From a virus (taxonomy: Duplodnaviria > Heunggongvirae > Uroviricota > Caudoviricetes): 29,277 bases of DNA. A program made the translations under genes and the position numbers. Below the pieces are notes generated by a model. That model made no database searches. It was not told the origin of the DNA and saw only the letters and a program-made list of their open reading frames with translations. The number at the start of each line of letters is the position of its first letter. Position 1 is the first letter of the stretch. Positions 812 to 22,354 of the stretch are shown piece after piece. The DNA lies in the IMG/VR virus record IMGVR_UViG_2660238524_000011; one strand, 5' to 3'.

Positions 812-812
812 A

Positions 813-1239: not shown

Positions 1240-1919
1240 CTGGCCTCCAGTTTCTGTTGTTCCTGCCCACTGACCGGGCGGTGCAGTCTGACGTTCTGCC
1301 CTTCACGAAACCCCGCATAGCGCGAGGCGTCGCCATTGCGGCTTCTTCCCGGTTTACGCGCCCTGGTGGTTTGCGTCTGCGGGTATTTATGTTCCAGCCA
1401 CTGCTGCATCAGTTCACGCTCATCATCGGTCAGGGCAAAGGACTGTATTTCACTGATAACGGCCAGCACCCAGCCTTCGGCAAACTGGTCTCCACGGCTG
1501 GTGCGGGTGGCGGTTTTTATTCTTTTGTTCTGTGCACTGATATACTGCTGACGCGCCTTTTTCAGCTGACGGGCCAGCACTTCCCAGGTGTATGCAGCCA
1601 GTGCCGCACGTTCCCGGTTGCCGTAGAACCCCACAGACGGATGCGTGCCGGGGTGAATGATGGAGTTAACACCAAATACCTCGCGGATGATGTTCATCAG
1701 GCCCAGCATGTAGCGCGGTGGACGGAGACTGCCTGTCGGCCAGTAGTGACTGATGGTTTCATCAATATCACTCATAGCAATGTCGGAATGTGTGATGCCG
1801 TGAACATCCATCAGTTTACGGGCTCGGCGCAGTGCCAGAGCGGCCTCGTGCGGGTTGCCGGATGCGGCCAGCGCCAGCAACTTTTTCAGTTTCTCAATGT
1901 GTTTATTCTGGTCTGTCAT
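1236..1919 (-). CDS. DUF2786-like domain protein
   Basis: Motif LLALAASGNPHEAALALRRARKLMDVHGI matches my recollection of DUF2786. The ATG at 1919 has a GGAGA RBS and overlaps the upstream stop (ATGA); the track start at 1955 lacks an RBS. Confidence 0.5.
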   Translation of the reverse strand: MTDQNKHIEKLKKLLALAASGNPHEAALALRRARKLMDVHGITHSDIAMSDIDETISHYWPTGSLRPPRYMLGLMNIIREVFGVNSIIHPGTHPSVGFYGNRERAALAAYTWEVLARQLKKARQQYISAQNKRIKTATRTSRGDQFAEGWVLAVISEIQSFALTDDERELMQQWLEHKYPQTQTTRARKPGRSRNGDASRYAGFREGQNVRLHRPVSGQEQQKLEAR

Positions 1920-2131
1920 TGTTCTGTATCTCCGGTATTTTTCTGCCGTTTCCATGCCCGGACAGCGTCGGACAGCTCTTTCAGGCTGTATGCTGCTTTA
2001 AGCTTTTCCCATAACCACTGTGTTGTTATGTGCATCAGCAGGGCAGCCAGGGCTGCCCCCGCACTGAGGCATGTCGCCAGGCCAGTAAGAATCAGTGTCC
2101 ATGCGGTGATTTCCCTGAGTATGTCAGCCAT
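1916..2131 (-). CDS. small membrane protein (71 aa, hypothetical)
   Basis: GGGAGG RBS 6 nt upstream of ATG at 2131. Hydrophobic core ITAWTLILTGLATCLSAGAALAALL. Confidence 0.45.
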   Translation of the reverse strand: MADILREITAWTLILTGLATCLSAGAALAALLMHITTQWLWEKLKAAYSLKELSDAVRAWKRQKNTGDTEQ

Positions 2132-2145
2132 TGAATGCCTCCCGG

Positions 2146-2442
2146 TTACTCGTTCGTGTAAATCACGCCCAGTCGTGCAGCCAGACGTTCCAGTTTTTTC
2201 TGTTTGTGGAAGTCAATCAGCCGGTCCATCCCCTGAAGGCGCAGTTGCTCTGTCATGATTTCCACGTCTGCCAGCTCTGCCGCGAGGTCACTTTCGCTGC
2301 CCTGTCCGTTCAGGTTGCGGGCGGCACTGGCCGCCAGTTCAGCGGCCTCTTCTGCCAGTTTCAGGGCCTGTGCGTCCGGCCCGAAACGCTGCAGGGCCAG
2401 ACGGTAGAGGGCGGTGCGGGTGAGTTCGGTGTTTCGTGTCAT
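2146..2442 (-). CDS. hypothetical early protein (98 aa)
   Basis: Co-oriented and tightly spaced within the early operon; Ala/Leu-rich helical protein. Confidence 0.4.
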   Translation of the reverse strand: MTRNTELTRTALYRLALQRFGPDAQALKLAEEAAELAASAARNLNGQGSESDLAAELADVEIMTEQLRLQGMDRLIDFHKQKKLERLAARLGVIYTNE

Positions 2443-2451
2443 GCCGCGCCC

Positions 2452-2724
2452 TCAGTGCTTCCGGCTGACGGTGATGTGCAGGCCGCCTTCTGCAGTGGTT
2501 TCCATCCGGTACGGCACCTCATGCTCTGCCGTGTGGGTGAGTGTGTTCATCAGTACCTGCAGGGCAGCCTCCTTTCCGTTGGTCGCCACAATGGCCTGTG
2601 TGGCCATGCTGATTAGCGCCGTCAGGACGTGCTTCACATCGGTGAGGTCGCGGCATTCACACTCGTTGACATAGTGTTCAACAAGGGTTCGGGTGCGCTG
2701 TCGTGCTTCCTGTGGGGTAATCAT
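2452..2724 (-). CDS. hypothetical early protein (90 aa)
   Basis: Co-oriented and tightly spaced; start overlaps the stop of 2721..2915 (ATGA). Confidence 0.4.
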   Translation of the reverse strand: MITPQEARQRTRTLVEHYVNECECRDLTDVKHVLTALISMATQAIVATNGKEAALQVLMNTLTHTAEHEVPYRMETTAEGGLHITVSRKH

Positions 2725-2915
2725 TGCGAGTCCTCCCTGTCAGGGCGGGAGAATTCCATGACGGGCACGTCTGCCGAAAAATGCTGGCTGCAGTACGGGC
2801 AGACCAGGGTGACGCGTACCGCAGGGATGTGGTATTTACCGGACATCACGGCGATGGCGCTGTGAAAACGCAGGGCTGTTATATCCCTCTCGCACTGAAT
2901 ACATTTAAATATCAT
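2721..2915 (-). CDS. small zinc-ribbon protein (CxxC...CxxC)
   Basis: 64 aa with paired Cys motifs (CIQC ... CPYC). GAGGAG RBS upstream of ATG at 2915. Confidence 0.45.
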   Translation of the reverse strand: MIFKCIQCERDITALRFHSAIAVMSGKYHIPAVRVTLVCPYCSQHFSADVPVMEFSRPDREDSQ

Positions 2916-3012
2916 GATTTAATTCTCCTCTGTTTCCGGCGTGCAGAAGCCCGCGGCGCTGACGTCGGAATAAAAAAGAAAATGTTTTTATTAAATAATT
3001 AACGTGGTGTGT

Positions 3013-3543
3013 TTACTGCACATCCTGCTCAAAAGGAATTATTGAAAAATCCTCAATGTCGCTTTTAATGGAAATACCGGGAATATTTTTCACGGCCTCT
3101 TTTTCATTCAGGATAGCGTCTTTATTTATTTCCTCTTTTACACGAATAAAGCGCTCAAGCCCCAGACGTCTCAGTAATTCAATAACATTATCCGCCCCAC
3201 GGATACTGACTGATGGCGGACGGTTTCGCCACTGCACCTCGCCGGTGGTGAGGTTAGCGAACTTCACCTTCCCGTTGCCGGTCAGTTCATCACGGTGTGC
3301 CTCACACCATGTCTGAATACCGGACTGCAGTTCGGCCATGCGTTTTTTCAGGCTCTCGGTGAGCGGGGCATAACGTGCGGTGATATCGCCAATGGCGTCA
3401 TTCATTTCTGTTTCAGCCCTGACCAGTTCACGTTGTGCGTCACCGAGTAGTCTGATTCCCTCAATGACCTCTTCACGTGTCCCCGGCACCCAGAGTGCTG
3501 CTGCGGCCTTGATACGTTTTGCACCTTTTGTACTTTTTGCCAT
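3013..3543 (-). CDS. gam: Gam-like host-nuclease inhibitor (Mu Gam/Ku-like DNA end-binding protein)
   Basis: 176 aa; N-terminus MAKSTKGAKRIKAAAA and C-terminus GISIKSDIEDFSIIPFEQ closely resemble Mu Gam as I recall it. Confidence 0.8.
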   Translation of the reverse strand: MAKSTKGAKRIKAAAALWVPGTREEVIEGIRLLGDAQRELVRAETEMNDAIGDITARYAPLTESLKKRMAELQSGIQTWCEAHRDELTGNGKVKFANLTTGEVQWRNRPPSVSIRGADNVIELLRRLGLERFIRVKEEINKDAILNEKEAVKNIPGISIKSDIEDFSIIPFEQDVQ

Positions 3544-3570
3544 TTTTTATGATTTCTCCAGTTGTGCTGA

Positions 3571-3840
3571 TTACCACAAAGATTCCGGCCACACGACGCG
3601 ACAGCCGTGCAGTTCGAAAACGCCCTGACGGAAATATCCCCTGTGGTCATGTCCGGTATACAGATAACAGGCCTTTCCCTGCTCAAGCATGCGCATGCAA
3701 TGCGCACTCCGGGAAACGCGGATGACAGGTTTGTTACCCCTGATGGTGATGCTTTGTACATCCGTGTTCGTCGCCTTAAGCGCCATAATGGCTGACTGCA
3801 CTTTGCTGATTTGCTGGTTGATACCTGTGGTGGATTTCAT
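3571..3840 (-). CDS. hypothetical early protein at the position of Mu kil (89 aa)
   Basis: Start lies 2 nt past the B-like stop (TAATAATG context). Function assigned by position only. Confidence 0.35.
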   Translation of the reverse strand: MKSTTGINQQISKVQSAIMALKATNTDVQSITIRGNKPVIRVSRSAHCMRMLEQGKACYLYTGHDHRGYFRQGVFELHGCRVVWPESLW

Positions 3841-3842
3841 TA

Positions 3843-5009
3843 TTAAACCCCTTTGACAACGTCAGCGTTGACCTGTGGAACCCCGATTTCAGCGGCCAGA
3901 TTCATGGCGGCTATTACCAGGTTACTGACGGCCAGCGGATACAGCAGGCTGACCATATTTTTACGGTGACTTCCCGGATTGCTCAGGCGGGCACGTATGG
4001 CATCCACTGCACCGGCGTCCATAATGTCCGTCAGCTGTTTACCGGCCCGTTGCAGTTTGAACGTCAGAAATTCTTCAAGGTTATTGTCCAGAGGCAGAAG
4101 TTCGACCACCTCACAGCGCTGAACGACTTCACGGACTTCCATATTGCGTTCAGACAGTTTTGTCGCCAGTTCCGGCTGGCCAATCAGCACGATGGACAGC
4201 AGTTTTTTGAAACCGGACTCCAGCTCAAAAAAGCGTTTGAGGTGTTTCAGTGTCGGAATGGGCAGACTGTGGGCCTCCTCAATCACCAGAACGTGGCTGA
4301 ACCCCGCCTGGCTGCTGTCTTTCAGGACGCGATGCAACTGGCGAAAACGGGCGTCCTGACTGCGTCTGATGCTTTCCAGTGGTGCGATGGTACTGATAAT
4401 GGCTTCGGCAATAGCTGCTGCCTTCAGGGTTTTCCCTTTCACATCGTTGTCTTCCATAGCGATGATGTATGGCTCGATAACAATTACCGGCGCATTCTCG
4501 CGGTTGATACGTTCAGTCAGGTCGCGGCGCAGCGTGGATTTACCCGCACCGGACTCACCGATGACGGCCATAAACCCACCATGACGGGCTGTCTGGTACA
4601 GCGCCTCACGCACGTAGCGAATGTCCGGGGTGGTGAACACATCATCAGAACCCTGCATGGCTTCGTCGGCGAACGGGTCACGGAAAAGACCAAACGCTTT
4701 TTTGGTTGCTGGAAATAACACCTGTTTTTTGAGTAACATATTCTCTTCCTCACTGAGGCTCGTTTTATCTGTGGTACCCGCTGTACGGGGCGTGGCCGCG
4801 CCCTGTACAGCATCAAAACTCTTCGTTGTATCAATCCCCTGACTTTCCAGCCAGGACGCAAGACGCCGGCGCACTTCTCCGGGGCTGGTGCGGGGCCACG
4901 CGTTATGATTCACAATCTGGGCCAGCGTGGCCTCAGAAACATCGACAGCTCTCGCCACCACCGCCTGTGGAATACGGGCCTCTTTCAGTTGCTGCTTCAG
5001 TACCAGCAT
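3843..5009 (-). CDS. transposition helper ATPase (MuB-like, AAA+ P-loop)
   Basis: Walker A VIGESGAGKST; located immediately downstream of the transposase. GAGGAGG RBS 5 nt upstream of ATG at 5009; the track start at 5048 would overlap the A gene by 29 nt. Confidence 0.7.
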   Translation of the reverse strand: MLVLKQQLKEARIPQAVVARAVDVSEATLAQIVNHNAWPRTSPGEVRRRLASWLESQGIDTTKSFDAVQGAATPRTAGTTDKTSLSEEENMLLKKQVLFPATKKAFGLFRDPFADEAMQGSDDVFTTPDIRYVREALYQTARHGGFMAVIGESGAGKSTLRRDLTERINRENAPVIVIEPYIIAMEDNDVKGKTLKAAAIAEAIISTIAPLESIRRSQDARFRQLHRVLKDSSQAGFSHVLVIEEAHSLPIPTLKHLKRFFELESGFKKLLSIVLIGQPELATKLSERNMEVREVVQRCEVVELLPLDNNLEEFLTFKLQRAGKQLTDIMDAGAVDAIRARLSNPGSHRKNMVSLLYPLAVSNLVIAAMNLAAEIGVPQVNADVVKGV

Positions 5010-5019
5010 GTTTCCCTCC

Positions 5020-6789
5020 TCAGTTGCCGTTAACAATGCTGATAACACTGCTGCGGGCCGGTGTGGTCAGCGTGGCCATGACTTCATCCAGTGCGGCTTC
5101 CGGTACGCCGTCCGGGTACTGTGCCGTTAACTGGCGGTAATGTTCCGGCGTCCAGGTAAGGCCGTCGGCGCTGAACTTATCGCGCAGGGCTTTCGCGGCC
5201 TCCACATGAGTCATGGGACGTTGTTCAGTGCGCGGCCCGCGTACGTCAGAGGCCTGACCACGCTTCGGCATATAGGCCGGAAGTGTGGTGTCGTCGATAT
5301 GTTTATACGGGTCAAGCCGCCCGCCGAACGGCAGCGCCTTCGCCTTGCGTGCGGCGGCTGCATCTGCGGCGTTGTCTGTACCGGTAACCAGCGCTTCGGT
5401 TTCTTTTGCCGCCATCTGTGCCGGGGTTTCCGGCAGGGCTTTGTAACTTTCGCCAAATACCGCCGCGCCTTCAGCAAAGCCAAACTCGTTCTTTCTGACC
5501 TCTTCGACCAGGAAGAACGTCTCGTGGCCGTCCTCACCGGTCAGAACCACCTGTGCCACATCGCTGCGCCATGGGTTACGGGTAATCATCAGTTTTTCAC
5601 CAACCAGTACGCCCGGTACCGTTGATACGTCAAATTCAGTGCCCCGGAACGAGACACGAAGTTTTGGCGTGACTTTGCGGAGTTCTGGTGCCGCCACAGC
5701 CAGTTCACGACATACCTCAACGGAAGGCGCTTTTTTCAGCTGCTCAGCAGTAATCTTCAGCCAGATATCCGTGCGGGTTTTACCGTGGCGGCTGTGAACA
5801 GCCGTGGCGTTAAAGTGGCTGCGCCATTTCGCGGCCAGCGCGTTGAGTTCTTCCAGACTGTGAACCGGCCGGAACTTCAGACCCGGCTCCAGCTTGCGTT
5901 CGATAATGTCACGCGCCTTTTCCACCTGTCCGGTGGCGCGGGCGTTATGCGGCTTGTGCGCTATCAGGTCGATGCCCAGTGAGCGGCACATGTTTTTCGT
6001 CATACCCGCGGTGTTTGCCGAGCCGGGGTCGAGATAGAGTATTTTCGGCACGCCGTGCAGCACGTCTGCGCCGCCACGCTCCTGCATGGCGTTGATAAGC
6101 ACAGAACACAGGTTCTCACCTGATTCCGCGCCCGTCACATACTCAACGTAAATCCAGCCGCTGGCATGGTCGGTAATCTCGTAACTCCACACGCGGTCAC
6201 TGGCGATACGGGCAAGGTTAGCGGGCTTGTTCTTGTAGAACTTCGCGCTGTCCATCACCTGCAGCCCTTTATGTCCATTGCTCAGGTAGTAAAGCGTGCA
6301 GAGTGAGGCGTCAATCTGCCAGACATGATTGGGATGCAGACTGGCCACTTCGGTATGTGGTGCAGGGGCATCCAGTTGTTCCGGGTGCAGGCCATAGTTA
6401 CGCAGAGCACGGCTGATGGCATCTTCAGACAACGGGAAAAACTCACTGGTGGTTTCATCTGTTCTGCCTGCGGTGATAAAGCCGTTAGCCCGCAGGGTTT
6501 CCACTGCATCTGCGATGGAATAGAGACGCTTACCGTTCTTGCGGGTGGCCTCACGCAGTGTGGCAGATATCAGCGCGGCTTCGTCGCGGGTCAGGGCGCT
6601 GCGCCCGGCATCGGCGCGTTTTTTGCGTTTATCAGTCACAGATACCTCCTTCAGCCTGCGCAGCAGAGTGGCGCGGGACATGCCAAGTTCAGCACAGGCA
6701 GCGTCGTATATTGCACCGCGTTTACCATGCCCCGCGTCACGTGCCGCGCGGGCGACATAAACCAGTCGTTCAGTCAGGGCAGCATTCAT
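5020..6789 (-). CDS. DDE transposase (Mu A-like, RNase H-fold integrase core)
   Basis: 589 aa with N-terminal HTH region and candidate DDE residues in HVWQIDAS, LYLDPGSANT and HNARATGQVE. Confidence 0.8.
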   Translation of the reverse strand: MNAALTERLVYVARAARDAGHGKRGAIYDAACAELGMSRATLLRRLKEVSVTDKRKKRADAGRSALTRDEAALISATLREATRKNGKRLYSIADAVETLRANGFITAGRTDETTSEFFPLSEDAISRALRNYGLHPEQLDAPAPHTEVASLHPNHVWQIDASLCTLYYLSNGHKGLQVMDSAKFYKNKPANLARIASDRVWSYEITDHASGWIYVEYVTGAESGENLCSVLINAMQERGGADVLHGVPKILYLDPGSANTAGMTKNMCRSLGIDLIAHKPHNARATGQVEKARDIIERKLEPGLKFRPVHSLEELNALAAKWRSHFNATAVHSRHGKTRTDIWLKITAEQLKKAPSVEVCRELAVAAPELRKVTPKLRVSFRGTEFDVSTVPGVLVGEKLMITRNPWRSDVAQVVLTGEDGHETFFLVEEVRKNEFGFAEGAAVFGESYKALPETPAQMAAKETEALVTGTDNAADAAAARKAKALPFGGRLDPYKHIDDTTLPAYMPKRGQASDVRGPRTEQRPMTHVEAAKALRDKFSADGLTWTPEHYRQLTAQYPDGVPEAALDEVMATLTTPARSSVISIVNGN

Positions 6790-6792
6790 TGG

Positions 6793-7707
6793 TTATGCCT
6801 CCAGCCCGTTAATCTGTGGCGTCGGCTCAGTCAGCCATGAAGGCGCTGCATTGCCTGTTGGCTCGTCCGGCAGGTCAAATGTGGAGCGCAGGCTACGCGC
6901 TGTGCTTTCCAGTTGACAGACCAGGCCTGCCATGAAGTCTCTGGGGGTATCAATCATGTTTTCAGCACAATATGCGCACAGCGTCTCAAAAGCGCTGGAC
7001 AGTCGGACGGCGATAGCAGATTCCGCCTCAACCGCTAATGCTGTTACTTCCGCCCGCAGCTTCTTAACCTCCTCATCAGGCTCAGGCGGCTGAATACGGG
7101 ATTTCTTCTCCAGTCTGGTGGAGAGTGAATCTATTTTTTCATTTTTGTCGGCGAGTACGCGCTGTTGTGCTGCGTTGGTTTCGCGCGCTTCGCGCAGGGC
7201 CTGACGCAATTCACGTACTGACATGCGATCAACGTCGTCAAGCGTCAGGCCGGCAACTGTGCCGCCGTCGGCCAATTCATCAAGTTCTTCATTATCCAGA
7301 ACCATCAGGTCGTACAGTTTGGCTTTCCCCAAAACGCTCAACGTTGAGCGTTTTGTTGGCTCATCACCTTCTCCCAAAAACTTCATACTGGCTTGCATCA
7401 TGCGGCGAGCAACTTGTGGTGCAAGTCCGAGTTCATTTTCTAAAATGTTTGTAAAATCACCGTGTGGCTCATTTTCTTTTAAGATGATCAGCCGCTTACC
7501 CGCTTCCAGCATAGATTCAGCACTCTGCGCCATATAAAAACGTGCTTCGTGAACAATGCGATCACGTTCATAAGGCAGTCCATCACCAAACTGCTGCATA
7601 ATTTCCATGCGATGCTGTGTCATAGCGTTCAAATTGACATTGATGTTATCTGACAGCGGAACCTCAACATTCAGTTCAGTGTTAACGGGTGATTTGGTGC
7701 GTCCCAT
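6793..7707 (-). CDS. conserved Mu-like early protein (304 aa, coiled-coil; copy 1)
   Basis: Immediately upstream of the A gene; paralog at 11101..12021 (about 85% identity by eye). Acidic and coiled-coil rich. Confidence 0.55.
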   Translation of the reverse strand: MGRTKSPVNTELNVEVPLSDNINVNLNAMTQHRMEIMQQFGDGLPYERDRIVHEARFYMAQSAESMLEAGKRLIILKENEPHGDFTNILENELGLAPQVARRMMQASMKFLGEGDEPTKRSTLSVLGKAKLYDLMVLDNEELDELADGGTVAGLTLDDVDRMSVRELRQALREARETNAAQQRVLADKNEKIDSLSTRLEKKSRIQPPEPDEEVKKLRAEVTALAVEAESAIAVRLSSAFETLCAYCAENMIDTPRDFMAGLVCQLESTARSLRSTFDLPDEPTGNAAPSWLTEPTPQINGLEA

Positions 7708-7717
7708 TGATTACTCC

Positions 7718-8026
7718 TTACAAACGACTACCTGAAATAACTCGTTGGTTGATTTCGTTAATACGATCCTGTGCACGCGCCATCTCGTGACTGTGAGCCA
7801 TGGCGATCTGTAGTAACTGGATTCCCGGTGCGAAACGTCCGTTCTCTAATTTCATGGCCAGTCCCTCTTCAATAAGGGTATTAAGTGCTCGATTGATATT
7901 CGCCGGGGACTCCCCCAGGGCTGATGCCAGTTCACCGTTAGAAACACCGTTCAGAGCATGACCGCGTAGAGCTTTGAGTACACGTAGGATGCGGGTCCCA
8001 GAACTGGAAATATTTACTTTACTCAT
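7718..8026 (-). CDS. winged-helix HTH DNA-binding protein (copy 1)
   Basis: Track ORF 7718..8089 trimmed to the ATG at 8026 (MSKVNISSSGTRILRVLKALRGH) by analogy with copy 2. HTH-like segment NGELASALGESPANINRALNTLIEEG. Confidence 0.5.
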   Translation of the reverse strand: MSKVNISSSGTRILRVLKALRGHALNGVSNGELASALGESPANINRALNTLIEEGLAMKLENGRFAPGIQLLQIAMAHSHEMARAQDRINEINQRVISGSRL

Positions 8027-8078
8027 GTCACATTTCCATTTTTGCAATATGTGATAACCTGTTGCATATGTGGAAAAT

Positions 8079-8267
8079 TTATGCCGCATTTGACGTGGGT
8101 TTTAATCCCAGTTTTACGGCAATTTCATGGGCTTTGCCGTAACGAGCTTTGGTCTGTCCATTGAGAACACGATAGACCTCATTGCGGCTGTAGCCGTGTT
8201 CTTCGGCCCAGCGGGTAAACGTGATACCACGCTGACGGAAGAGATTTTTAACTTGTTCGGAAGTCAT
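8079..8267 (-). CDS. Ner-like small DNA-binding regulator (first gene of early operon, copy 1)
   Basis: 62 aa with HTH segment GITFTRWAEEHGYSRNEVYRVLNG. Divergent from the repressor gene and first gene of the leftward operon. Confidence 0.55.
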   Translation of the reverse strand: MTSEQVKNLFRQRGITFTRWAEEHGYSRNEVYRVLNGQTKARYGKAHEIAVKLGLKPTSNAA

Positions 8268-8353
8268 TGTTGTCTCCTTTGTTGATGCAATGATGTTTGT
8301 TTTATATGTGATAGATTATGAGAACTATTGTTCTCATTGTCAATGAGGTTTAT
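8268..8353. promoter_or_regulatory. divergent promoter/operator region 1, with palindrome ATGAGAAC-N4-GTTCTCAT at 8318-8337
   Basis: Perfect 8-bp inverted repeat with 4-bp spacer read directly from the sequence, between divergent Ner-like and repressor genes. TTGATG at 8282-8287 is a possible -35 element. Confidence 0.5.
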
Positions 8354-8779
8354 GTGAATTTTGATTCTCTTTGCGCGTCGCGGTTCAAAGCTGAGCGTTC
8401 GCGGTTATCACTCAAGCAGGCTGAAGTAGCAGCCCTTTGTGGCGTTTCAAGAGAAATGTGGGGGAAATATGAACGAGGGGTTGCTGTTCCCGGAGGTGAG
8501 TTACTTGCAGCCTTTGCAAGAATTGGGGCCAATGTACAGTTCATTCTTACCGGGGAGTCATCAGGTATAACTTTATCACGTGATGAAATGGAGTTACTGC
8601 AGCACTACCGGCAGGCACCATTACAGGTCAAAGGTTCAGTTTTGTCGGCCTTGACTACTGGCTCCTCCAGAGAACGGGCGGAACAGGTTATTCATGGAGA
8701 TGTTCTGGGGAATGTTATCAAAGGTAACGTAACCATAGGAACAGGTGGAATAATGAACAAAAATACCAAGAGAAGATGA
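8318..8779 (+). CDS. XRE/Cro-CI-type HTH repressor (immunity repressor 1)
   Basis: HTH LSLKQAEVAALCGVSREMWGKYERG. The track ATG at 8318 lies inside the operator palindrome and lacks an RBS; in-frame GTG at 8354 preceded by GAGG is an alternative start. Stop overlaps the next start (ATGA). Confidence 0.65.
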   Translation: MRTIVLIVNEVYVNFDSLCASRFKAERSRLSLKQAEVAALCGVSREMWGKYERGVAVPGGELLAAFARIGANVQFILTGESSGITLSRDEMELLQHYRQAPLQVKGSVLSALTTGSSRERAEQVIHGDVLGNVIKGNVTIGTGGIMNKNTKRR

Positions 8780-9762
8780 GTAAAGAGAAGCAAACAGTTA
8801 ACGGGGATGTGGGTAACGTTGTCAGCGGTGATGTTACCATTCATAACTATTCTGCTGACATACTTCCTTCGGCCCAGCAACCAATTTCGTTGCTGCAAAA
8901 ACGCGATTTACACAGATTGATGGATGAATTGGTTGATCTGGGGGAAAGTAAGCGCGAGCTATGGATGACGATCCACACGAAACTTAATACCAAAACAGTT
9001 AATGAAATGACTGCGGCTGATTATCATGGTGCGGTTGAGATCCTTCAGAGATATGCACAACAGATCCAGAATATGAAGGACTGTAATCTTCTGGTCAGCA
9101 AAATAATGGCGCTTACTGACCCTGGGTATCGTCTTGACCGTGACAGATACTGTCTGAAGCATTTCGGTACAACCCATCTTAAAGGCCTAGACAAAGAGCA
9201 GTTGCAGGCTGTGTTTGGTTATTTTGATGATCTGCTGAATATTCGTGATGAGAGTAAAACTCTATCACCTCCATCGGAAAGCGGTGCAAAATCAGTCGCA
9301 ACTGTACCAACCAGAAGCCGGAAGCCTCATGTAGTAGTGTTGGGGGGAGTGTTAGTTCTTGTAGCAATATTTTTCGTGGGAATGATTGTGTTCGCTGGTA
9401 AATGGGGAAATGCCAAAGCAGTAGCTTCTACTGAAACCAGCGTTTTTAACATTAAAACCAACGATAAAATAATAGAAGATTCCATCCCCGCACTGCGCAG
9501 CATGTTTCCAGGGTTAAATAAGTACTCAGATGATTTCCATTCGGTTTCAAGCTACAAGCAAAAAACGGGCTGGCATACCCTTAAATTTACTGTATCAGCA
9601 AAGGCATCCGTCCCCGAAAATTATAGTGTTAAGGGCAAGGTTTGTTACATTAACATAAGCCCTGATGGTAGTTATGCTCGGGTTTTGACTGCTCCATGTC
9701 GTTCACTGCTACTTGATCAGCAAAGCACTCCTGACAGTAAATACCGTTTTATTCTTAAATAG
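8776..9762 (+). CDS. membrane-anchored protein of unknown function (328 aa)
   Basis: Single hydrophobic segment VVVLGGVLVLVAIFFVGMIVFAG between a roughly 165-aa N-terminal domain and a roughly 120-aa C-terminal domain. Visibly AT-rich relative to neighbours. Confidence 0.55.
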   Translation: MSKEKQTVNGDVGNVVSGDVTIHNYSADILPSAQQPISLLQKRDLHRLMDELVDLGESKRELWMTIHTKLNTKTVNEMTAADYHGAVEILQRYAQQIQNMKDCNLLVSKIMALTDPGYRLDRDRYCLKHFGTTHLKGLDKEQLQAVFGYFDDLLNIRDESKTLSPPSESGAKSVATVPTRSRKPHVVVLGGVLVLVAIFFVGMIVFAGKWGNAKAVASTETSVFNIKTNDKIIEDSIPALRSMFPGLNKYSDDFHSVSSYKQKTGWHTLKFTVSAKASVPENYSVKGKVCYINISPDGSYARVLTAPCRSLLLDQQSTPDSKYRFILK

Positions 9763-9843
9763 AAAATAACAGCTGAATTACCATGGGATCAGAAAAAAGA
9801 CAAAGGCGGCATCATGCTGCGTTCTGAAATTTTAATGTAAAAG

Positions 9844-10434
9844 GTGATGAACATGGCAGGGATTCAGGTTATCGCAGGAAGTTTTCCTAAAGGGTGGGCA
9901 AGCATGGGGTTCGGTACCATCGTGTTTGCCAAAAAACCAAAACAAGGCTTTCCTGAAAATATTGTATTAAATCTGAAAGAAGAGCTTTTATCGATTGAAC
10001 TTGCGGATAGTGAAGAGGAAAGCCGTATAGGTAAGGCGGCAGGCGCAGGTTTGCTTGGTGGATTAATCTTTGGTGGTGCAGGGTTGGTCATTGGAGGTTT
10101 GCTTGGTGCGGCGGACAAGACGAAAAAAACTATCACTTTTAAGGCAATGTTTACGGGAAATAGGTTACTTCTGGCTAAAACAGATTCAAAAACTTTTGTA
10201 AAACTTCAGTCAATTGCTGCTGATAATGCCCATAACGCATCTGTAATCAACATGAAGCAAACTAACAGGGGCGATGTTTCTTCTCGTAAACAACTAACAG
10301 AAAATCCACAGCAGCAAGACTTACCTGCGCCCGCTACAACAGTAAAAATGACTGCCAAAGATAAGTTAGAATCGGCTCTTGGGCTGGGAATCATCGTTAT
10401 AGCTGTTTGGGCAATAATACACTTCTTTTTTTAG
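9844..10434 (+). CDS. glycine-zipper membrane protein of unknown function
   Basis: Gly-rich segment GAGLLGGLIFGGAGLVIGGLLGAA and C-terminal hydrophobic helix. Likely start is the ATG at 9853, preceded by AAGG. Confidence 0.5.
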   Translation: MMNMAGIQVIAGSFPKGWASMGFGTIVFAKKPKQGFPENIVLNLKEELLSIELADSEEESRIGKAAGAGLLGGLIFGGAGLVIGGLLGAADKTKKTITFKAMFTGNRLLLAKTDSKTFVKLQSIAADNAHNASVINMKQTNRGDVSSRKQLTENPQQQDLPAPATTVKMTAKDKLESALGLGIIVIAVWAIIHFFF

Positions 10435-10435
10435 T

Positions 10436-10460
10436 GCAGCCCTTCAGGGCTGTTTCTGTT
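10436..10460 (+). terminator. putative intrinsic terminator
   Basis: Hairpin GCAGCCC-ttca-GGGCTG (stem one side one base longer) followed by TTTCTGTT, directly after the stop of 9844..10434. Confidence 0.5.
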
Positions 10461-10471
10461 CAGGAGGTATC

Positions 10472-10768
10472 TTAAGGATTATCCGGGGCGTTTTCCTGTT
10501 TGCCGTACTTCGGAGACGAACAACATTCTGTTGGCTGACCGGTGAGTTTACGTAACTCCTTCATGAGCAGCTCCTGATCGTAAACTGTCATCAGTGCCGC
10601 AATGGTGGCATGCAGTGCATCGGGCAGTATCCAGGGACGCAGCAGAGTGGCGCGGGACATGCCAAGTTCAGCACAGGCAGCGTCGTATATTGCACCGCGT
10701 TTACCATGCCCCGCGTCACGTGCCGCGCGGGCTGTTTCAACCAGTTTTTCAGTCAGTGCCGGGGTCAT
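10472..10768 (-). pseudogene. chimeric in-frame fusion: transposase N-terminus (44 aa) joined to an internal fragment of the P-loop gene
   Basis: 10638-10732 is identical to 6659-6753 (A gene 5' region). 10493-10636 matches 14970-15113 with 3 mismatches in 144 bp. Product is MTPALTEKL...SRATLL followed by RPWILPDALHATIAALM. Confidence 0.55.
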
Positions 10769-10783
10769 AGCTTGTCTTCCCTG

Positions 10784-11101
10784 TTATCCGATTCTGGCGG
10801 CAATTTTTCTGGCGAGGTCGCACAGTGTTTCGCCATCGCAGGTTTTCACCACGGTATTTACCGGTTGCGGTGCAACTACCGGGCGTAATGCTGACTGATT
10901 CTGCAGACGTCTTATCTGCTGCATCAGCATCACCTCCATCGTCAGTACAAACGGGTGCGTCTCCTGTGCGGGTACGCAGATTTCACCGGAAGGGGTCACC
11001 ACGCGGAAACCCTGCACCATCTCCGGCAGCAGATTACACAGTGCGTGCCCCAGTGCCTCCGGGCTGTCCATCAGGGTATTTTGTGTGTTATTCGTATTCA
11101 T
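10784..11101 (-). CDS. hypothetical protein (105 aa), present only in control module 2
   Basis: Start abuts the stop of 11101..12021. No counterpart between the 304-aa gene and A in copy 1. Confidence 0.35.
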   Translation of the reverse strand: MNTNNTQNTLMDSPEALGHALCNLLPEMVQGFRVVTPSGEICVPAQETHPFVLTMEVMLMQQIRRLQNQSALRPVVAPQPVNTVVKTCDGETLCDLARKIAARIG

Positions 11102-12021
11102 TACTGCATATCCTCCGGTCGGTTGATTTCAGGTTCCGGTTCGGTCAGCCAGGCGGGGGCATCGTTACCCGATGGAGCGGCCTCAAGGTCAAACGTCTCA
11201 CGTAATGCATGAACACTGCGTTCAATCTGGCAGACCAGACCGGCCATGAAATCTCTGGGGGTATCGATCATGTTTTTGGTGCAGTATTCACACAGGGTCT
11301 CAAAAACACTGGACAGCCGGACGGCGATAGCCGATTCGGCCTCAACCGCTAATGCCGTCACTTCCGCCCGCAATTTTTTCAGTTCTTCGTCTGGCGGCGG
11401 AGGTTGCAGGCGCGATTTCTTCTCCAGTTTTGTGGCCAGTTCGTTGATTTTTTCGTCCTTTCCGGCAAGCACCTGTTGCTGAGCTGCGTTGGTTTCGCGC
11501 GCTTCACGCAGGGCGGCCTTCAGTTCGCGGCTGGTCATGCGATCAATATCATCAAGCGTTGCACCGGCGACGGTTCCACCATCAGCTAATGCGTCGAGTT
11601 CTTCGTCATCCAGAACCATCAGTTCATATAACTTGGTTTTTCCCAAAACGCTCAGCGCTGAGCGTTTTGGCTGTTCATCTCCATTGCCGAGAAATTTCAC
11701 GCTGGCCTGCATCATGCGACGAGCTACCTGTGGTGCTAATCCGAGGTCGTTTTCCAGAATATTTGTGAAATCACCATGCGGTTCATTTTCTTTTAAGATG
11801 ATCAGCCGCTTACCCGCTTCCAACATAGATTCAGCACTCTGCGCCATATAAAAACGTGCTTCGTGAACGATGCGTTCACGTTCATAAGGCAGTCCATCAC
11901 CAAACTGCTGCATGATCTCCATGCGATGCTGTGTCATGGCATTCAGGCTGACGTTGAGATCATCCGACAGCGGTACATCGGCGTTCAGTTCAGTGTTAAT
12001 CGGTGATTTGGTACGTCCCAT
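11101..12021 (-). CDS. conserved Mu-like early protein (306 aa; copy 2)
   Basis: Paralog of 6793..7707. Confidence 0.55.
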   Translation of the reverse strand: MGRTKSPINTELNADVPLSDDLNVSLNAMTQHRMEIMQQFGDGLPYERERIVHEARFYMAQSAESMLEAGKRLIILKENEPHGDFTNILENDLGLAPQVARRMMQASVKFLGNGDEQPKRSALSVLGKTKLYELMVLDDEELDALADGGTVAGATLDDIDRMTSRELKAALREARETNAAQQQVLAGKDEKINELATKLEKKSRLQPPPPDEELKKLRAEVTALAVEAESAIAVRLSSVFETLCEYCTKNMIDTPRDFMAGLVCQIERSVHALRETFDLEAAPSGNDAPAWLTEPEPEINRPEDMQ

Positions 12022-12031
12022 TGATTACTCC

Positions 12032-12340
12032 TTACAAACGACTACCTGAAATGACACGTTGGTTAATTTCGTTAATACGATCCTGTGCACGTGCCATCTC
12101 GTTACTGTGGGCCATGGCGATCTGCAGTAACTGGATGCCCGGTGCAAAACGTCCGTTCTCCAGTTTCAGAGCCAGCCCTTCTTCAATGAGGGTGTTGAGT
12201 GCCCGGTTGATGTTTGCCGGTGACTCGTGCAGTGCTGTCGCCAGTTCACCGTTAGAAATACCGTTCAGGGCATGACCGCGCAGCGCTTTGAGTACCCGGA
12301 GGATGCGACTGCCGGAGCTTGAAACATTCGTCTTACTCAT
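12032..12340 (-). CDS. winged-helix HTH DNA-binding protein (copy 2)
   Basis: Paralog of 7718..8026. Start at the ATG at 12340 (MSK...) with AGAGG RBS 7 nt upstream. Confidence 0.5.
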   Translation of the reverse strand: MSKTNVSSSGSRILRVLKALRGHALNGISNGELATALHESPANINRALNTLIEEGLALKLENGRFAPGIQLLQIAMAHSNEMARAQDRINEINQRVISGSRL

Positions 12341-12392
12341 CTGCATACCTCTTTTGCGATATGTGATAACCTTTTACAAAGACTCAAAATAT

Positions 12393-12581
12393 TTAGGCCG
12401 CCTGAGCTGTTGATTTCAGTCCCAACTTCACGGCGATTTCATGGGATTTACCGTAACGGGCTTTGGTCTGCCCGTTGAGAACGCGGTATACCTCATTGCG
12501 GTTGTAGCCGTTTTCTTCTGCCCAGCGGGTGAAAGTGATCCCGCGCTGGCGGAAGAGAGCTTTGACTTGTTCTGCAGTCAT
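12393..12581 (-). CDS. Ner-like small DNA-binding regulator (copy 2)
   Basis: 62 aa, about 87% identical to 8079..8267. Confidence 0.55.
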   Translation of the reverse strand: MTAEQVKALFRQRGITFTRWAEENGYNRNEVYRVLNGQTKARYGKSHEIAVKLGLKSTAQAA

Positions 12582-12674
12582 CGTTGTCTCCTTTGTTGAT
12601 GCAATGATGTTTGCCTTATATGTGTTAGATTATTGCTCATAATTATGAGCATATCAAGATAGAGATTCACTTTT
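12582..12674. promoter_or_regulatory. divergent promoter/operator region 2, with 18-bp palindrome TGCTCATAATTATGAGCA at 12634-12651
   Basis: Perfect palindrome read from the sequence; a third half-site TATGAGCA overlaps the repressor 2 start codon at 12674-12681. Confidence 0.5.
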
Positions 12675-13031
12675 ATGAGCAAAGATATAGGAGAGCGCGT
12701 TATTTCTGTGAGGAAGAAAGCAGGGTTGAACCAGAGAGAATTTGCAGCTCGTTTAGGTATTTCTAATGGTGGTATCAGTCAGATTGAAAATGGAAAGGCG
12801 ATGCCTGGAGGGGAGTTTCTGTTAAAGATGCATCAAGAGTTTAATGTTGATGTAAATTGGTTGCTCACTGGAATGAGCACAGATGGTATGACTAGAAACC
12901 AGAATCAAATTTCCCCAGAAAAACAAAAACTAATAGATACTTTTGACGACATGACACCAGACCAACAACGCTCATTTCTTGAGATTGGGCGATTCTATAC
13001 TCAGCCAAAACCAGGAAAAATCGCAGGCTGA
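12675..13031 (+). CDS. XRE-type HTH repressor (immunity repressor 2)
   Basis: HTH LNQREFAARLGISNGGISQIENG. Unrelated to repressor 1 outside the HTH core. Confidence 0.65.
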   Translation: MSKDIGERVISVRKKAGLNQREFAARLGISNGGISQIENGKAMPGGEFLLKMHQEFNVDVNWLLTGMSTDGMTRNQNQISPEKQKLIDTFDDMTPDQQRSFLEIGRFYTQPKPGKIAG

Positions 13032-13116
13032 TACTGACCCGGACACAAAGGACAGGTGGTTGATCTGGATGCTTTCAGAAAACATCGCCAGTGACATAGT
13101 GGAAGTTGTTTGGTTT

Positions 13117-13148
13117 ACCGGAAAGCATTGTGCTTTCCGGTTTTGTTT
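13117..13148 (+). terminator. putative intrinsic terminator
   Basis: 10-bp stem ACCGGAAAGC/GCTTTCCGGT with 5-nt loop, followed by TTTTGTTT. Downstream of repressor 2 and abutting the Dam stop codon. Confidence 0.55.
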
Positions 13149-13910
13149 CAGAAGTTGCAGATTAGCAGTTCACGGCGCGGCGTGGGTTTACCCGCCAGAC
13201 TGTAGTTGATATTCACTGTCTGTATGTTCAGTCCAGTGAACACCTCGCGCATCTGCGGGATGTCGTTCACCGAAATTATCATTTTTCCTCTGATGCACCG
13301 GGCCAGCTCTGCCAGCCGCGAGTAGTTCCCTTCAGGAAAATCCACACCATAGCCTTCCGTACCCAGGTACGGTGGGTCGCAGTAGAACAGCGTGTGCGGA
13401 CGATCATAACGCTCAATGCACTGTTGCCAGTCCATGTGTTCTATGACTGTTCTGGAAAGCCGCAGGTGTGCCGCTGACAGTTCTTCTTCAATACGTAGCA
13501 GGTTGAAGCGTGGCGGGGATGTGGTGGAGGTACCGAAGCTGTGCTCTGCCACCTTGCCGCCAAACGCCTGCTTCTGAAGGTAGTAGAACCGTGCCGCACG
13601 CTGGATATCCGTCAGTGTTTCTTCCGGGGTGATCTGCAGCCATTTGTAGATCTGACGGCTGACCAGCGCCCATTTGAACTGGCGGACAAATTCTTCCAGG
13701 TGATGCTTTACCACCCGGTACAGATTCACCAGTTCACCGTTGATATCATTGATGACTTCGATCTTGCCGGGTGTCTTAAGAAAATAGAGCGCTGCTGCCC
13801 CACAAAACGGCTCCACATAACATTCATGCGCCGGAAACAGCGGCAGAATGTGTTTTGCAAGGCGGCGTTTGCCACCAATCCACGGCACGATGGGTAATGT
13901 CTGCATTTTC
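13148..13910 (-). CDS. dam: DNA adenine methyltransferase (Dam-like, D12-class N6-MTase)
   Basis: DPPY catalytic motif (FYCDPPYLG) and N-terminal SAM-binding region (IVPWIGGKRR ... VEPFCGAAA). Track ORF trimmed to the ATG at 13910 (MKMQTLPIVPW). Confidence 0.75.
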
Positions 13911-14102
13911 ATAATCTGCAAGCCTTTTACAATTATTAAAAAATATGGCAGTCTGGTCAGGTCTCGCGAGACTGACTGAACCTTGGTCGGCTCACAGCGC
14001 ATTCCTGTGGGGCGATGACCAGCCCGGCTTTCGGGTGCCGGGCTGGTCGTTCTTTCATGATGCGGCAGGGATGGCGGGATTTCTGTTAATGTGGTTTAGG
14101 GA

Positions 14103-14318
14103 TTATCCGGGGCGATTTTCTGACCTTATCCGGTCCAGGGCATAAGTAATACCTTCTGCAAAAACAGAAGTATCAAACTGCTTTTGTATTCCCTGAAAAT
14201 GAAAAGCGGCACGACAGACACTCAGTTCTCCGCGGTATAACCGGATAATATCTTCCAGAACATTGTTCACTGCTTCAGCACGGCGCTGATGTTCTGTTAA
14301 CGTTAATCGGGGATTCAT
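14103..14318 (-). CDS. hypothetical protein (71 aa)
   Basis: Strong AAGGAG RBS 7 nt upstream of the ATG at 14318. Confidence 0.45.
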   Translation of the reverse strand: MNPRLTLTEHQRRAEAVNNVLEDIIRLYRGELSVCRAAFHFQGIQKQFDTSVFAEGITYALDRIRSENRPG

Positions 14319-14721
14319 GATGCACTCCTTAAATGATGATTTTTATGTACTCACCGGCAAAATATTCTGCCGATTACTGAACACGCATCCGGCACCTCAG
14401 GTTTTGATTTATTCTGGTTTTTTCGATATCCCGGACCAGGTTGATCACGACCAGAAAAAGTGCCGGTGTTTTATTGATACGCTGATATGGCTTCGGGATA
14501 ACAGCTATATTCGTTACTCTCAGTTGCTGGCTGTGGGAGCGGCTGATGTCGTCCTCACGGAAAAAACGCTCTGTCTGCTCAATGCCATGCCGACCTTTCT
14601 GCAGCCCCGGCCCGTACCATTTAAAGAGTCACTTCTGGATGCAGTAAAAACCGGTGAAAATGCAGTCATCGCTGAATGCGTATCCCGGATTATGCGTTAC
14701 GTGTTTAATGAACGTAAGTGA
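14317..14721 (+). CDS. hypothetical protein (134 aa)
   Basis: ORF fills the 378-nt gap between minus-strand genes. Its start codon overlaps the divergent start of 14103..14318 (CATGATG); 3' end converges on and overlaps the P-loop gene. Weak GGGGA RBS. Confidence 0.35.
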   Translation: MMHSLNDDFYVLTGKIFCRLLNTHPAPQVLIYSGFFDIPDQVDHDQKKCRCFIDTLIWLRDNSYIRYSQLLAVGAADVVLTEKTLCLLNAMPTFLQPRPVPFKESLLDAVKTGENAVIAECVSRIMRYVFNERK

Positions 14722-15425
14722 GGTTTATCCGCTGTCTGCATAATCCCGATAGCCAGTGCGAGGGGAAGTAATTCCGGGGAAACTCTTTCAAACAGCGATG
14801 CCCATTCTCCTCTCGCCATCACTCTGTCCAGCCCGCCCTCCAGTTGCATTTCAGCAATCTTCCTGATTTCCCGGAACAACGCCGCTTTGATCTCTTCATG
14901 CTCAGCTTTATTTTCCGGTGTCAGAAGGTATTCGTCGAAGAACCGGGGAGGCTGGTTAATCGGGATGTGTTCCTGTTTGCCGTACTTCGGGGACGAACAA
15001 CATTCTGTTGACTGACCAGTGAGTTTACGTAACTCCTTCATGAGCAGCTCCTGATCGTAAACTGTCATCAGTGCCGCAATGGTGGCATGCAGTGCATCGG
15101 GCAGTATCCAGGGTTGCCGGCCCGTGGGGCATATAACATCCAGCAGCTCATTCGTCCGACAGATACGCTCCTCGCCGTATGACAACAGGCCCTGTCCCGT
15201 GTATTCCTCCAGCCTGATCACTGTGCCAGCCCGTGGTTTCTGCCATGTGCTCAGATCATCCCCACTCATACGGCGCTCACCGTCCACGTCTGCGGCGTCG
15301 ACAATGACGCTGTTTCCGAATTCCTGTTTCACCACTTCCTCTATTCGCGCCAGTACGTAACTTTTACCGCTGCCCACAGGACCGGACACGGTGACAGTGA
15401 TGACCGGATTCAGTGTCTGCGTCAT
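14697..15425 (-). CDS. P-loop NTPase-like protein of unknown function (242 aa)
   Basis: N-terminal Walker A-like SGPVGSGKSY. GAGGAG RBS 8 nt upstream of ATG at 15425. Confidence 0.5.
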   Translation of the reverse strand: MTQTLNPVITVTVSGPVGSGKSYVLARIEEVVKQEFGNSVIVDAADVDGERRMSGDDLSTWQKPRAGTVIRLEEYTGQGLLSYGEERICRTNELLDVICPTGRQPWILPDALHATIAALMTVYDQELLMKELRKLTGQSTECCSSPKYGKQEHIPINQPPRFFDEYLLTPENKAEHEEIKAALFREIRKIAEMQLEGGLDRVMARGEWASLFERVSPELLPLALAIGIMQTADKPHLRSLNT

Positions 15426-15555
15426 ATCGTATTCTCCTCTGTGAATAATTCATCGTTTATCCTGCACATCCCGTATCCCCGGCTCTCTTAACGCGCTTTA
15501 AAATCCTTCGCGCCCTGTATTTGTGATGCTGTCTCCACCAGATAAGGAGACACAC

Positions 15556-15906: not shown

Positions 15907-15908
15907 TC

Positions 15909-22352: not shown

Positions 22353-22354
22353 CA

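Follow-up and report, generated by a model that had tools for sequence, protein, structure and literature searches.

Two predicted heteroimmune repressor-operator switches in a BcepMu-like prophage of Escherichia coli

Introduction

Which protein reads the palindromes that adjoin the repressor genes of a temperate phage carrying two such genes, and which promoter do these palindromes control? The question is raised by IMG/VR virus record IMGVR_UViG_2660238524_000011, a Caudoviricetes sequence of 29,277 nucleotides (nt) that was analysed over its full length and is hereafter called the window. It contains two modules, each with a small gene for a Ner-like helix-turn-helix (HTH) protein on the minus strand (ner1, ner2) and a divergent repressor gene on the plus strand (repressor 1, repressor 2; also rep1, rep2), and a perfect palindrome of different sequence lies between the genes of each pair. 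The window is a BcepMu-like transposable prophage of Escherichia coli, as seen from its DNA identity to Escherichia phage PhiKM (classified as Bcepmuvirus), its taxonomy line and its gene content and order (Mor, GemA, Gam, rve transposase and Mu-like head genes). Positions 1-6780 and 10638-29277 share 99.9% DNA identity with PhiKM, within an overall identity range of 96.8-99.9%, and related prophages were matched in 635 of 5426 complete E. coli genomes (~12%). We report here that the two palindromes are very probably the sites at which two different repressors would shut off the main early promoter, the sequence pointing to an ordinary phage immunity switch in each module.

Palindromes in the early promoter spacers

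The first palindrome, at 8318-8337, reads ATGAGAAC/tatt/GTTCTCAT, with perfect 8-nt arms around a centre of 4 nt, and the second, at 12634-12651, is a perfect palindrome of 18 bp, TGCTCATAATTATGAGCA; an exact TTATGAGCA occurs again at 12673-12681, across the repressor 2 start codon (ATG 12675). The initial annotation had described both palindromes, a third half-site over the repressor 2 start and the overlap of the first palindrome with the annotated start of repressor 1 (ATG 8318), and all of these were found as described, the palindromes both in direct reading and by repeat search. Its further statement that the flanking promoter DNA is conserved between the copies applies to the ner side, where 8268-8319 and 12582-12633 are 92% identical (4 mismatches in 52), and fails on the repressor side, where the likeness is limited to the -35 hexamer (TGTCAA and TATCAA on the plus strand). 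The copies are homologous (81.7%) over 6903-8319 and 11217-12633, and this homology breaks off precisely where the variable segment starts, at its first base. No second copy of either palindrome was found elsewhere in the window at up to three mismatches, so that neither module contains a cross-site of the other's operator.

The promoter concerned is the leftward early promoter (Pe), rather than that of the repressor. Pe1 agrees with the sigma-70 consensus at 11 of 12 positions and Pe2 at 10 of 12, each being the sole sigma-70 match in its surroundings (7950-8500 and 12270-12800, respectively), and Pe1 reads into ner1, then an IclR-type HTH gene, a DUF3102 gene, the rve transposase gene and those beyond. 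In both modules the dyad fills the Pe spacer and overlaps the -10 element, and a protein bound there would therefore exclude RNA polymerase. Among relatives, the second palindrome also occurs as TTGCTCATAATTATGAGCAA and TGCTCATTATTTTGAGCA.

Mononucleotide shuffles of each intergenic region gave a perfect inverted repeat with 8-nt arms at P = 0.0055 (86-nt region) and P = 0.0087 (93-nt region). Over the whole window, about four such repeats are expected and 16 nested matches, or about eight distinct ones, are seen; the palindromes by themselves are therefore weaker evidence than their position and the comparative data.

Co-variation of dyads and repressor HTH domains

To place both modules among their relatives, we surveyed 61 ner-anchored loci (58 from IMG/VR and three from GTDB species genomes) together with four loci reached via repressor homologues, 65 in all. 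About 50 nt beside ner (...GTTGATGCAATGATGTTTGCCTTATGTGTGATAGATTAT) are conserved in nearly all ner-anchored loci, and the variable segment beyond them consists in each case of a dyad in the same promoter slot. Pe stands at equal offset from the ner ATG (48-76 nt) in eight of the ten immunity types. For types A to J (Table 1) each repressor cluster is paired with a single dyad and each dyad with a single cluster, and locus L067 adds a further type, making eleven HTH types.

Within type A, in relatives down to 56% protein identity, the arms of the palindrome are constant and its centre reads TATT, TATA, TTTA or TTTG. The Dickeya and Pectobacterium homologues, of 56-59% identity and with an unchanged recognition helix, served as a test of prediction: both retain ATGTGAAC-N4-GTTCTCAT and vary in the centre alone, their dyads being ATGTGAACtttgGTTCTCAT and ATGTGAACtttaGTTCTCAT. 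In one type-A prophage (IMGVR_UViG_2541047893_000009) the right-arm core carries a G-to-A substitution, from GTTCTCAT to ATTCTCAT; the weaker second site (O2, below) uses the same ATTC core, so this may be a tolerated or a down-affinity operator variant. Two IMG genomes contain two such prophages with recognisable immunity regions, and in both the types differ (A with E, and E with C), which lends anecdotal support to heteroimmunity.

Natural domain exchanges bear on the source of specificity. The repressor of the type-F locus L045 is ~95% identical to rep1 in its C-terminal domain (from residue 65) and ~45% in its HTH domain, and its dyad is TATGTGATCAATACATCACATA. At L067 a rep1-like C-terminal domain, followed by the same downstream gene of 328 codons, is joined to a third HTH domain beside the perfect palindrome GGTATTCATATGAATACC; this dyad resembles the TGTATTCATTTGAATACA of L062, and the HTH domains of the two loci are alike too, whereas the remainder of the proteins is not. 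Three HTH domains on one C-terminal domain are thus found with three different palindromes. Operator and HTH co-vary between heteroimmune relatives, as in switches of the CI/C2 type, and these sequence comparisons point to the repressor HTH domain as the carrier of operator specificity.

The exchanged C-terminal domain itself (residues 65-141 of the 8354-8779 product, ...AEQVIHGDVLGNVIKGNVTIG.GGIMNKNTKRK) is near-unchanged behind at least three unrelated HTH domains and was found in proteins P0003, P0004, P0006, P0021, P0022, P0025 and P0028.

The start of repressor 1

The annotated start of repressor 1 is the first triplet of the palindrome, without a Shine-Dalgarno sequence before it, and RefSeq gives the identical gene of E. 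coli IAI39 a length of 153 amino acids (aa). GTG 8354 is in frame with this ATG and has a Shine-Dalgarno sequence, GAGG, at 8345-8348, 5 nt ahead of it. In four independent lineages (L022, L055, Dickeya L064 and Pectobacterium L065) a TGA follows immediately after the upstream ATG (ATGTGAAC), and all four retain the GTG and a purine-rich Shine-Dalgarno sequence. Homologues of 56-59% identity from Pectobacterium, Brenneria and Dickeya start with MNFDSL, and one Salmonella homologue has an ATG where the GTG sits. With the GTG start, residues 5-70 of repressor 1 align to residues 4-70 of the P22 C2 N-terminal domain, and repressors of the other immunity types start at an equivalent place, 86-101 nt from ner. 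The MRTxxLIVN peptide that appears "conserved" in some annotations is a translation of the operator and the -35 element, and its variable residues map to the dyad centre. On this sequence evidence we conclude that the repressor 1 gene spans 8354-8779 and encodes 141 aa, the annotation being 12 codons too long.

It is improbable that repressor 1 is translated from ATG 8318 instead, perhaps on a leaderless mRNA like that of lambda cI from PRM, with the overlap a coding coincidence or an autoregulatory feature. The N-terminal peptide would then be MRTIVLIVNEVY, and the RefSeq length, the open frame in the E. coli group and in the distant clusters P0005 and P0016, and the similar MRTxxLIVN peptide encoded there would all fit. 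The stop codons, the placement of the Shine-Dalgarno sequence, the offset of the other starts and the P22 C2 alignment nonetheless all favour the GTG; P0016 itself has an ATG at the GTG position, and variation within the 12 codons (I to K, TI to LI) falls in the dyad centre, as expected of an operator and not of a protein.

Additional operator-like sites

Each locus was scanned for further sites with its own dyad (O1), P values being drawn from Markov samples (1000 for the second site of copy 1). In most types a weaker O1-like copy, O2, lies 29-34 bp to the right of O1, over the repressor start codon. None of the 1000 samples reached the score of O2 in copy 1 (13-position window). In copy 2 the right half-site of O2 is the exact TTATGAGCA noted above and the left half is weak (P = 0.001), and the site is kept in L020 and L050. 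Across the survey P was at most 0.002 in types A, B, D, E, H and I and 0.025 in type F; O1 and O2 are 33-34 bp apart in types A and F, both of which have the rep1 C-terminal domain, and 29-31 bp apart in the other types scanned.

A candidate third site, O3, lies within the repressor 2 gene. Its hexamers and their spacing equal those of O1, and P is 0.035 in the window and, in relatives, 0.023 and 0.006, although the site also encodes a conserved LLTG motif. For O3, P ≤ 0.05 was reached by types B, C, D and H and, within type E, by one locus of the two tested (L026, P = 0.023; L041, P = 0.237). A third operator for repressor 1 was sought and rejected, the best match agreeing at 11 of 20 positions (P = 0.94).

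What reads the palindromes

A different account would treat the palindromes as RNA hairpins, such as a stabilising 5' stem-loop of the repressor mRNA or an attenuator, rather than as protein-binding DNA. The predicted folds are stable (-13.1 and -9.2 kcal/mol, z-scores -3.9 and -2.6), and a joint change of both arms from type to type would fit a hairpin equally well. Both palindromes, however, are located in the promoter spacer, ahead of the point at which the Pe transcript starts, and if the repressor transcript starts where we place it below, the dyad would be transcribed only in part. Extra copies of the motif 30-34 bp and ~230 bp away, lone half-sites among them, would be superfluous for a hairpin; the palindrome follows the HTH domain of the adjacent repressor even where the rest of the protein is unchanged, and no Rfam family reached threshold anywhere in the window. 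We consider a hairpin very unlikely.

The Ner-like protein is another potential reader: it has an HTH and is the product of the adjoining, divergent first early gene, and in lambda Cro and CI share operators. The two Ner proteins of the window, however, are 87% identical, and residues 28-45 are identical, yet the palindromes beside them are unrelated; the window repressors are only 36% identical over the HTH. Across eight immunity types the Ner-like protein is 81-100% identical, and one and the same Ner sequence accompanies types B, D and E, the ner2 product being identical to the Ner of a type-E locus. Because the same Ner occurs with three different palindromes, it cannot be their reader, and we give this reading slightly less credit still than the hairpins. 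That the palindromes are chance features of AT-rich intergenic DNA is refuted by the comparative data: some four such repeats are indeed expected in 29 kb, but P is ~0.005-0.009 per intergenic region, both palindromes take the identical promoter position, and in related loci eleven types each have a dyad in that slot.

The initial annotation had taken the palindromes for operators of two immunity specificities, with repressor 1 starting at GTG 8354. Each part of this view gains support from the sequence: the placement of each palindrome in an early-promoter spacer and over the -10, the separate dyad of every HTH type among the 65 loci beside a shared Ner, and, for the start, the stop codons in four lineages, the MNFDSL homologues and the P22 C2 alignment.

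A model of the two switches

The explanation that we favour, with good confidence, is that the window contains two heteroimmune switches of the same design, each with O1 in the Pe spacer and with specificity residing in the repressor HTH domain, repressor 1 being translated from GTG 8354. The sequence itself shows the sites, where they lie in the promoter, how they vary together with the HTH domain, and the start codon; for binding, cooperativity, the repressor promoter and the role of Ner we infer the following course of events.

Pe, a strong leftward sigma-70 promoter, would transcribe the ner-like gene and the transposition and replication operon, with the small XRE-family repressor gene divergent to it. 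A repressor dimer on O1, in the 17-bp Pe spacer and over the -10, would exclude RNA polymerase and keep the prophage silent. A second dimer, probably bound cooperatively, would occupy O2, three helical turns away over the repressor start codon, and would limit the repressor's own expression; for repressor 2, O3, 228 bp away in its own gene, might allow looping or act as a roadblock. Repressor 1 would read ATGAGAAC-N4-GTTCTCAT and repressor 2 TGCTCA-N6-TGAGCA, making the two modules heteroimmune. The Ner-like protein and the ner-side DNA, comprising the Pe -10, the early 5' untranslated region (UTR) and a likely extended -10 repressor promoter, would be common to all immunity types, so that Ner would have to act on the shared DNA and not on the palindromes.

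The repressor mRNA would have to begin before 8345, and the sole conserved candidate for its promoter (Pc) is an extended -10, TGnTAGATT. When an alignment was inspected by eye, a TGn followed by a -10-like hexamer could be read at the corresponding place in every immunity type, even where the neighbouring bases differ. The Pc1 transcript would start near 8323-8325, inside O1, which would imply negative autoregulation. A -35/-10 promoter between O1 and the start codon was rejected, there being no room for one ahead of the Shine-Dalgarno sequence. By analogy with Mu Ner, whose placement relative to Pe and the repressor promoter is comparable, the Ner-like protein would probably bind within the conserved stretch that lies between ner and O1, which would place it at about +8 to +21 relative to Pe and around the -35 of the proposed repressor promoter. 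The block GCAATGATGTTTG (8287-8300, 12601-12614), which is conserved even in Dickeya L064 and Pectobacterium L065 despite the diverged UTR around it, may be where the shared Ner-like protein binds.

Several points weigh against this model. The repressor's own promoter stays below the threshold of the sigma-70 consensus scan in both modules, and if Pc is where we place it, O1 would repress Pc as well as Pe, an unusual and possibly leaky design. O2 is absent in type C (P = 0.74) and no O3 was found in types A, F and G; because both sites overlap conserved coding sequence in part, the fact that they are conserved cannot count as independent evidence and carries less weight than it does for O1. 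The frame is open from the upstream ATG in three lineages (P0001, P0005 and P0016), and some use of that ATG is conceivable, though operator constraint explains the open frame. Finally, the literature searched contains no mapping of binding, footprints, transcripts, operators or promoters for the BcepMu-like phage group.

Table 1. Features of the two immunity modules in the window and dyads of the immunity types.
Feature	Position	Strand	Sequence and remarks
ner1	8079..8267	-	62-aa HTH protein, first gene of early operon; phrog_925
Candidate repressor promoter Pc1	8309..8317	+	Extended -10 TGaTAGATT; overlaps Pe1 -10 on the other strand
Early promoter Pe1	8315..8343	-	-35 TTGACA (8343-8338), 17-bp spacer, -10 CATAAT (8320-8315)
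Predicted operator O1 of repressor 1	8318..8337	none	ATGAGAAC-tatt-GTTCTCAT; fills Pe1 spacer, overlaps -10
Candidate operator O2 of repressor 1	8352..8371	none	ATGTGAATTTTGATTCTCTT; 14/20 against O1; 34 bp from O1; over GTG
Repressor 1 coding sequence	8354..8779	+	141 aa; GTG 8354; XRE/HTH_3, with C-terminal domain common to other HTH types
ner2	12393..12581	-	87% identical to ner1
Candidate repressor promoter Pc2	12623..12631	+	Extended -10 TGtTAGATT; same grounds as Pc1
Early promoter Pe2	12629..12657	-	-35 TTGATA (12657-12652), 17-bp spacer, -10 AATAAT (12634-12629)
Predicted operator O1 of repressor 2	12634..12651	none	TGCTCATAATTATGAGCA; fills Pe2 spacer
Candidate operator O2 of repressor 2	12663..12682	none	AGATTCACTTTTATGAGCAA; 30 bp from O1; over ATG 12675
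Repressor 2 coding sequence	12675..13031	+	118 aa; XRE/HTH_3; Pfam HTH_3 E = 4.6e-15
Candidate O3 of repressor 2, within its own gene	12861..12880	none	TTGCTCACTGGAATGAGCAC; TGCTCA-N6-TGAGCA
Type A dyad (Pe spacer)			ATGAGAAC-N4-GTTCTCAT; window copy 1
Type B dyad (Pe spacer)			TGCTCATAATTATGAGCA; window copy 2
Type C dyad (Pe spacer)			TATCCCATAAATGGGATA
Type D dyad (Pe spacer)			TATACACAAACGTGTATA
Type E dyad (Pe spacer)			GGTGCAGAttacCTCACC
Type F dyad (Pe spacer)			TATGTGATCAATACATCACATA
Type G dyad (Pe spacer)			TTCCCAAACGGGAA
Type H dyad (Pe spacer)			GGTAGAAAATTTTCAACC
Type I dyad (Pe spacer)			TGTATTCATTTGAATACA
Type J dyad (Pe spacer)			GATGATTTAATCA...TGATTTAATCATC

Comparison with known immunity switches

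Both repressors have an HTH of the Cro/C1 type, the Pfam families matched being HTH_3, HTH_31 and HTH_19. Repressor 1 matched HTH_31/HTH_3 and, among PDB structures, the P22 C2 N-terminal domain (E = 9e-5), and repressor 2 matched Phage_CI_repr in Pfam and the N-terminal domain of the 434 repressor (E = 3e-8). No Peptidase_S24 match was found on either protein (141 and 118 aa) at E ≤ 0.01, which sets them apart from the LexA-like, RecA-cleavable class (lambda CI, 434 CI and full-length P22 C2), defined by a C-terminal S24 domain with an Ala-Gly cleavage site, and makes induction via RecA-stimulated autocleavage unlikely; a few distant homologues (P0068, P0069 and P0078) do bear PF00717.

In their HTH_3 repressors the modules thus resemble the lambdoid 434 cI and P22 c2 systems, and further shared features are dyad operators of 14-20 bp that overlap the early promoter, a distance of a few helical turns from one site to the next, and the joint exchange of operator and repressor between heteroimmune phages. 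They differ from the lambdoid systems in lacking the C-terminal autocleavage domain, in having the Cro analogue, Ner, outside the exchanged cassette, where it cannot share operators, and in the apparent back-to-back arrangement of promoters with overlapping -10 elements in place of the PR/PRM arrangement; the phage itself, moreover, is a transposable myovirus.

The c-ner regions of Mu and D108 are likewise those of transposable phages with heteroimmune relatives, in which the repressor gene is divergent from an early operon led by a small Ner-type HTH gene and the repressor blocks Pe from several operators (O1-O3). Mu c, however, has a winged-helix DNA-binding domain related to MuA and acts with IHF on non-palindromic repeats over ~200 bp, and its operators double as the transposition enhancer. 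The window repressors matched XRE-type HTH families only in Pfam, which places them outside the Mu c class, and their sites are compact dyads in an intergenic region of ~90 bp. In Mu and D108, ner varies along with c, whereas here it is shared.

Phage P2 C is also a small repressor (~100-140 aa) without SOS cleavage that occludes the early promoter around its -10, and repressor 2 weakly matched its structure (2l49/2xcj, E = 0.003). The binding sites of P2 C are two direct repeats, one on either side of the -10, and its Pe and Pc stand face to face, whereas the sites in the window are inverted repeats within the spacer and the genes are divergent. In layout, the closest analogue of O1, O2 and O3 of repressor 2 is TP901-1 CI (OR, OL, OD), another small repressor without a cleavage domain, which binds palindromes at divergent promoters and a distant intragenic site thought to allow looping. 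TP901-1 is an unrelated type of phage with Lactococcus as host, and its distal site lies in a lytic gene rather than in the repressor gene.

Genome organization and origin of the two modules

The gene order and near-identical DNA of the window are those of BcepMu and PhiKM, with the early arm on one strand and the repressor, lysis and late genes on the other; PhiKM has one immunity module where the window has two. From 8267 downward, the minus-strand early arm encodes the 62-aa Ner-like HTH protein, an IclR-type HTH protein, DUF3102 and the rve-family transposase, followed by an ExeA/MuB-like ATPase, Gam, GemA and Mor, and the plus strand encodes the repressor, lysis proteins and Mu-like head and tail proteins. 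The Ner-like protein matched phrog_925, "HTH DNA binding protein" (E = 1e-32), and ner2 alone scored with Pfam HTH_35, the Mu Ner / Nlp family, at 17.9 bits, below the cut-off of 25. Judged by analogy of position, ner1 is the counterpart of Mu Ner and lambda Cro. In the PhiKM GenBank record (PQ738613.1, 29393-29860) the 118-aa repressor 2 gene is unannotated, only a 41-aa hypothetical protein being given on the opposite strand.

The two modules are different cassettes joined by recombination, and did not arise by duplication. Positions 1-6753 are identical to PhiKM, and the sequence from 10638 onward is 99.9% identical to it. Between them, 6754-10636 is a 3.9-kb segment of E. coli IAI39 type, 99-99.9% identical to type-A loci, set within a PhiKM-type genome. 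This segment contains the transposase N-terminus, DUF3102, the IclR-type gene, ner1, rep1 and genes of 328 and 196 codons, as well as the final 55 codons of a gene called "ABC transporter ATPase" in RefSeq. The left boundary of the segment falls within homologous transposase sequence. No microhomology is seen at the right join (10636, a filler A, 10638), which yields an in-frame fusion open reading frame, 10472-10768 on the minus strand, of the transposase N-terminus and the "ABC transporter ATPase" C-terminus. None of the 5426 complete E. coli genomes spans the right junction, and a 30-mer across it is absent from IMG/VR and from JGI metagenomes; the junction may have arisen by a rare illegitimate recombination of two heteroimmune phages, or it may be artefactual.

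Downstream of repressor 1, its stop codon overlaps the start of the gene for the 328-aa protein (ATGA, 8776-8779), an arrangement of translational coupling, and the gene for the 196-aa protein comes next (8776-10434). The two products match phrog_10002 and phrog_12025, of unassigned function. PADLOC gave no match to these genes, which are co-transcribed with repressor 1; only the Dam-like methylase of module 2 matched methyltransferase models. In relatives, faint Flk_N Pfam marks appear on the 328-aa gene (L067, L068) and none on the 193/194-aa gene downstream of the repressor (L064 to L066). Both genes may be cargo expressed in the lysogen.

Further sequence elements were noted in the vicinity. 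Perfect palindromes lie inside both DUF3102 genes, one of 26 bp at 7330-7355 and one of 28 bp at 11643-11670 (CAAAACGCTCAACGTTGAGCGTTTTG, CCAAAACGCTCAGCGCTGAGCGTTTTGG), at a fixed place in the coding sequence that corresponds to ~3903-3939 in loci L006-L060. This slot holds at least nine different sequences in related loci, each a perfect palindrome of 24-28 bp, and the encoded peptide varies freely (KRSTLSVLG against an inferred KCANVGTFG). With an A-tract, a GC-rich stem and a T-tract, and RNA folds of -17.8 and -19.0 kcal/mol, it appears to be a strongly selected DNA or RNA element, with an attenuator, a site for protein binding and a transposition enhancer as possible roles. Another inverted repeat, imperfect and 20 nt in length (TTTCCATTTTTGCAATATGT / ACCTGTTGCATATGTGGAAA), is present at 8033-8076, in the gap between ner1 and the IclR-type gene, and at 12352-12371, and its motifs TGCAAT and ATATGTGATA recur just upstream of O1 (8285-8313). 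At 13118-13140, ACCGGAAAGCAttgTGCTTTCCGGT followed by TTTTG (-17.1 kcal/mol, z-score -4.85) probably forms a terminator that separates repressor 2 from the convergent gene for the Dam-like methylase (13148-14002, minus strand).

Implications

Heteroimmune repressor-operator cassettes are, in principle, textbook matter; here they are predicted in a phage group whose regulation, as far as we found, has not been described. Much more tentatively, as a reading that is less likely than not, we suggest that the immunity cassette is exchanged at a fixed breakpoint within the promoter, between -10 and spacer, and that the Cro-like arm, comprising Ner, its target DNA and the repressor promoter, is common to all types. 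If so, the Ner of a superinfecting heteroimmune phage, or of one of the two modules, could shut off repressor synthesis in a resident prophage of a different immunity type and induce that prophage in trans; the window would in that case represent a natural phage that carries two heteroimmune switches in series, confers immunity to both types and requires both repressors for lysogeny.

For a prophage family found in ~12% of complete E. coli genomes, the analysis provides a map of the early promoter, of two to three predicted operators per module and of the repressor start, and it corrects a start codon propagated in RefSeq, the protein having 141 aa and not 153. The eleven pairs of HTH domain and dyad in one promoter slot, including three HTH domains on an identical C-terminal domain, make up a natural library of orthogonal repressor-operator pairs for studies of specificity and for synthetic circuits.

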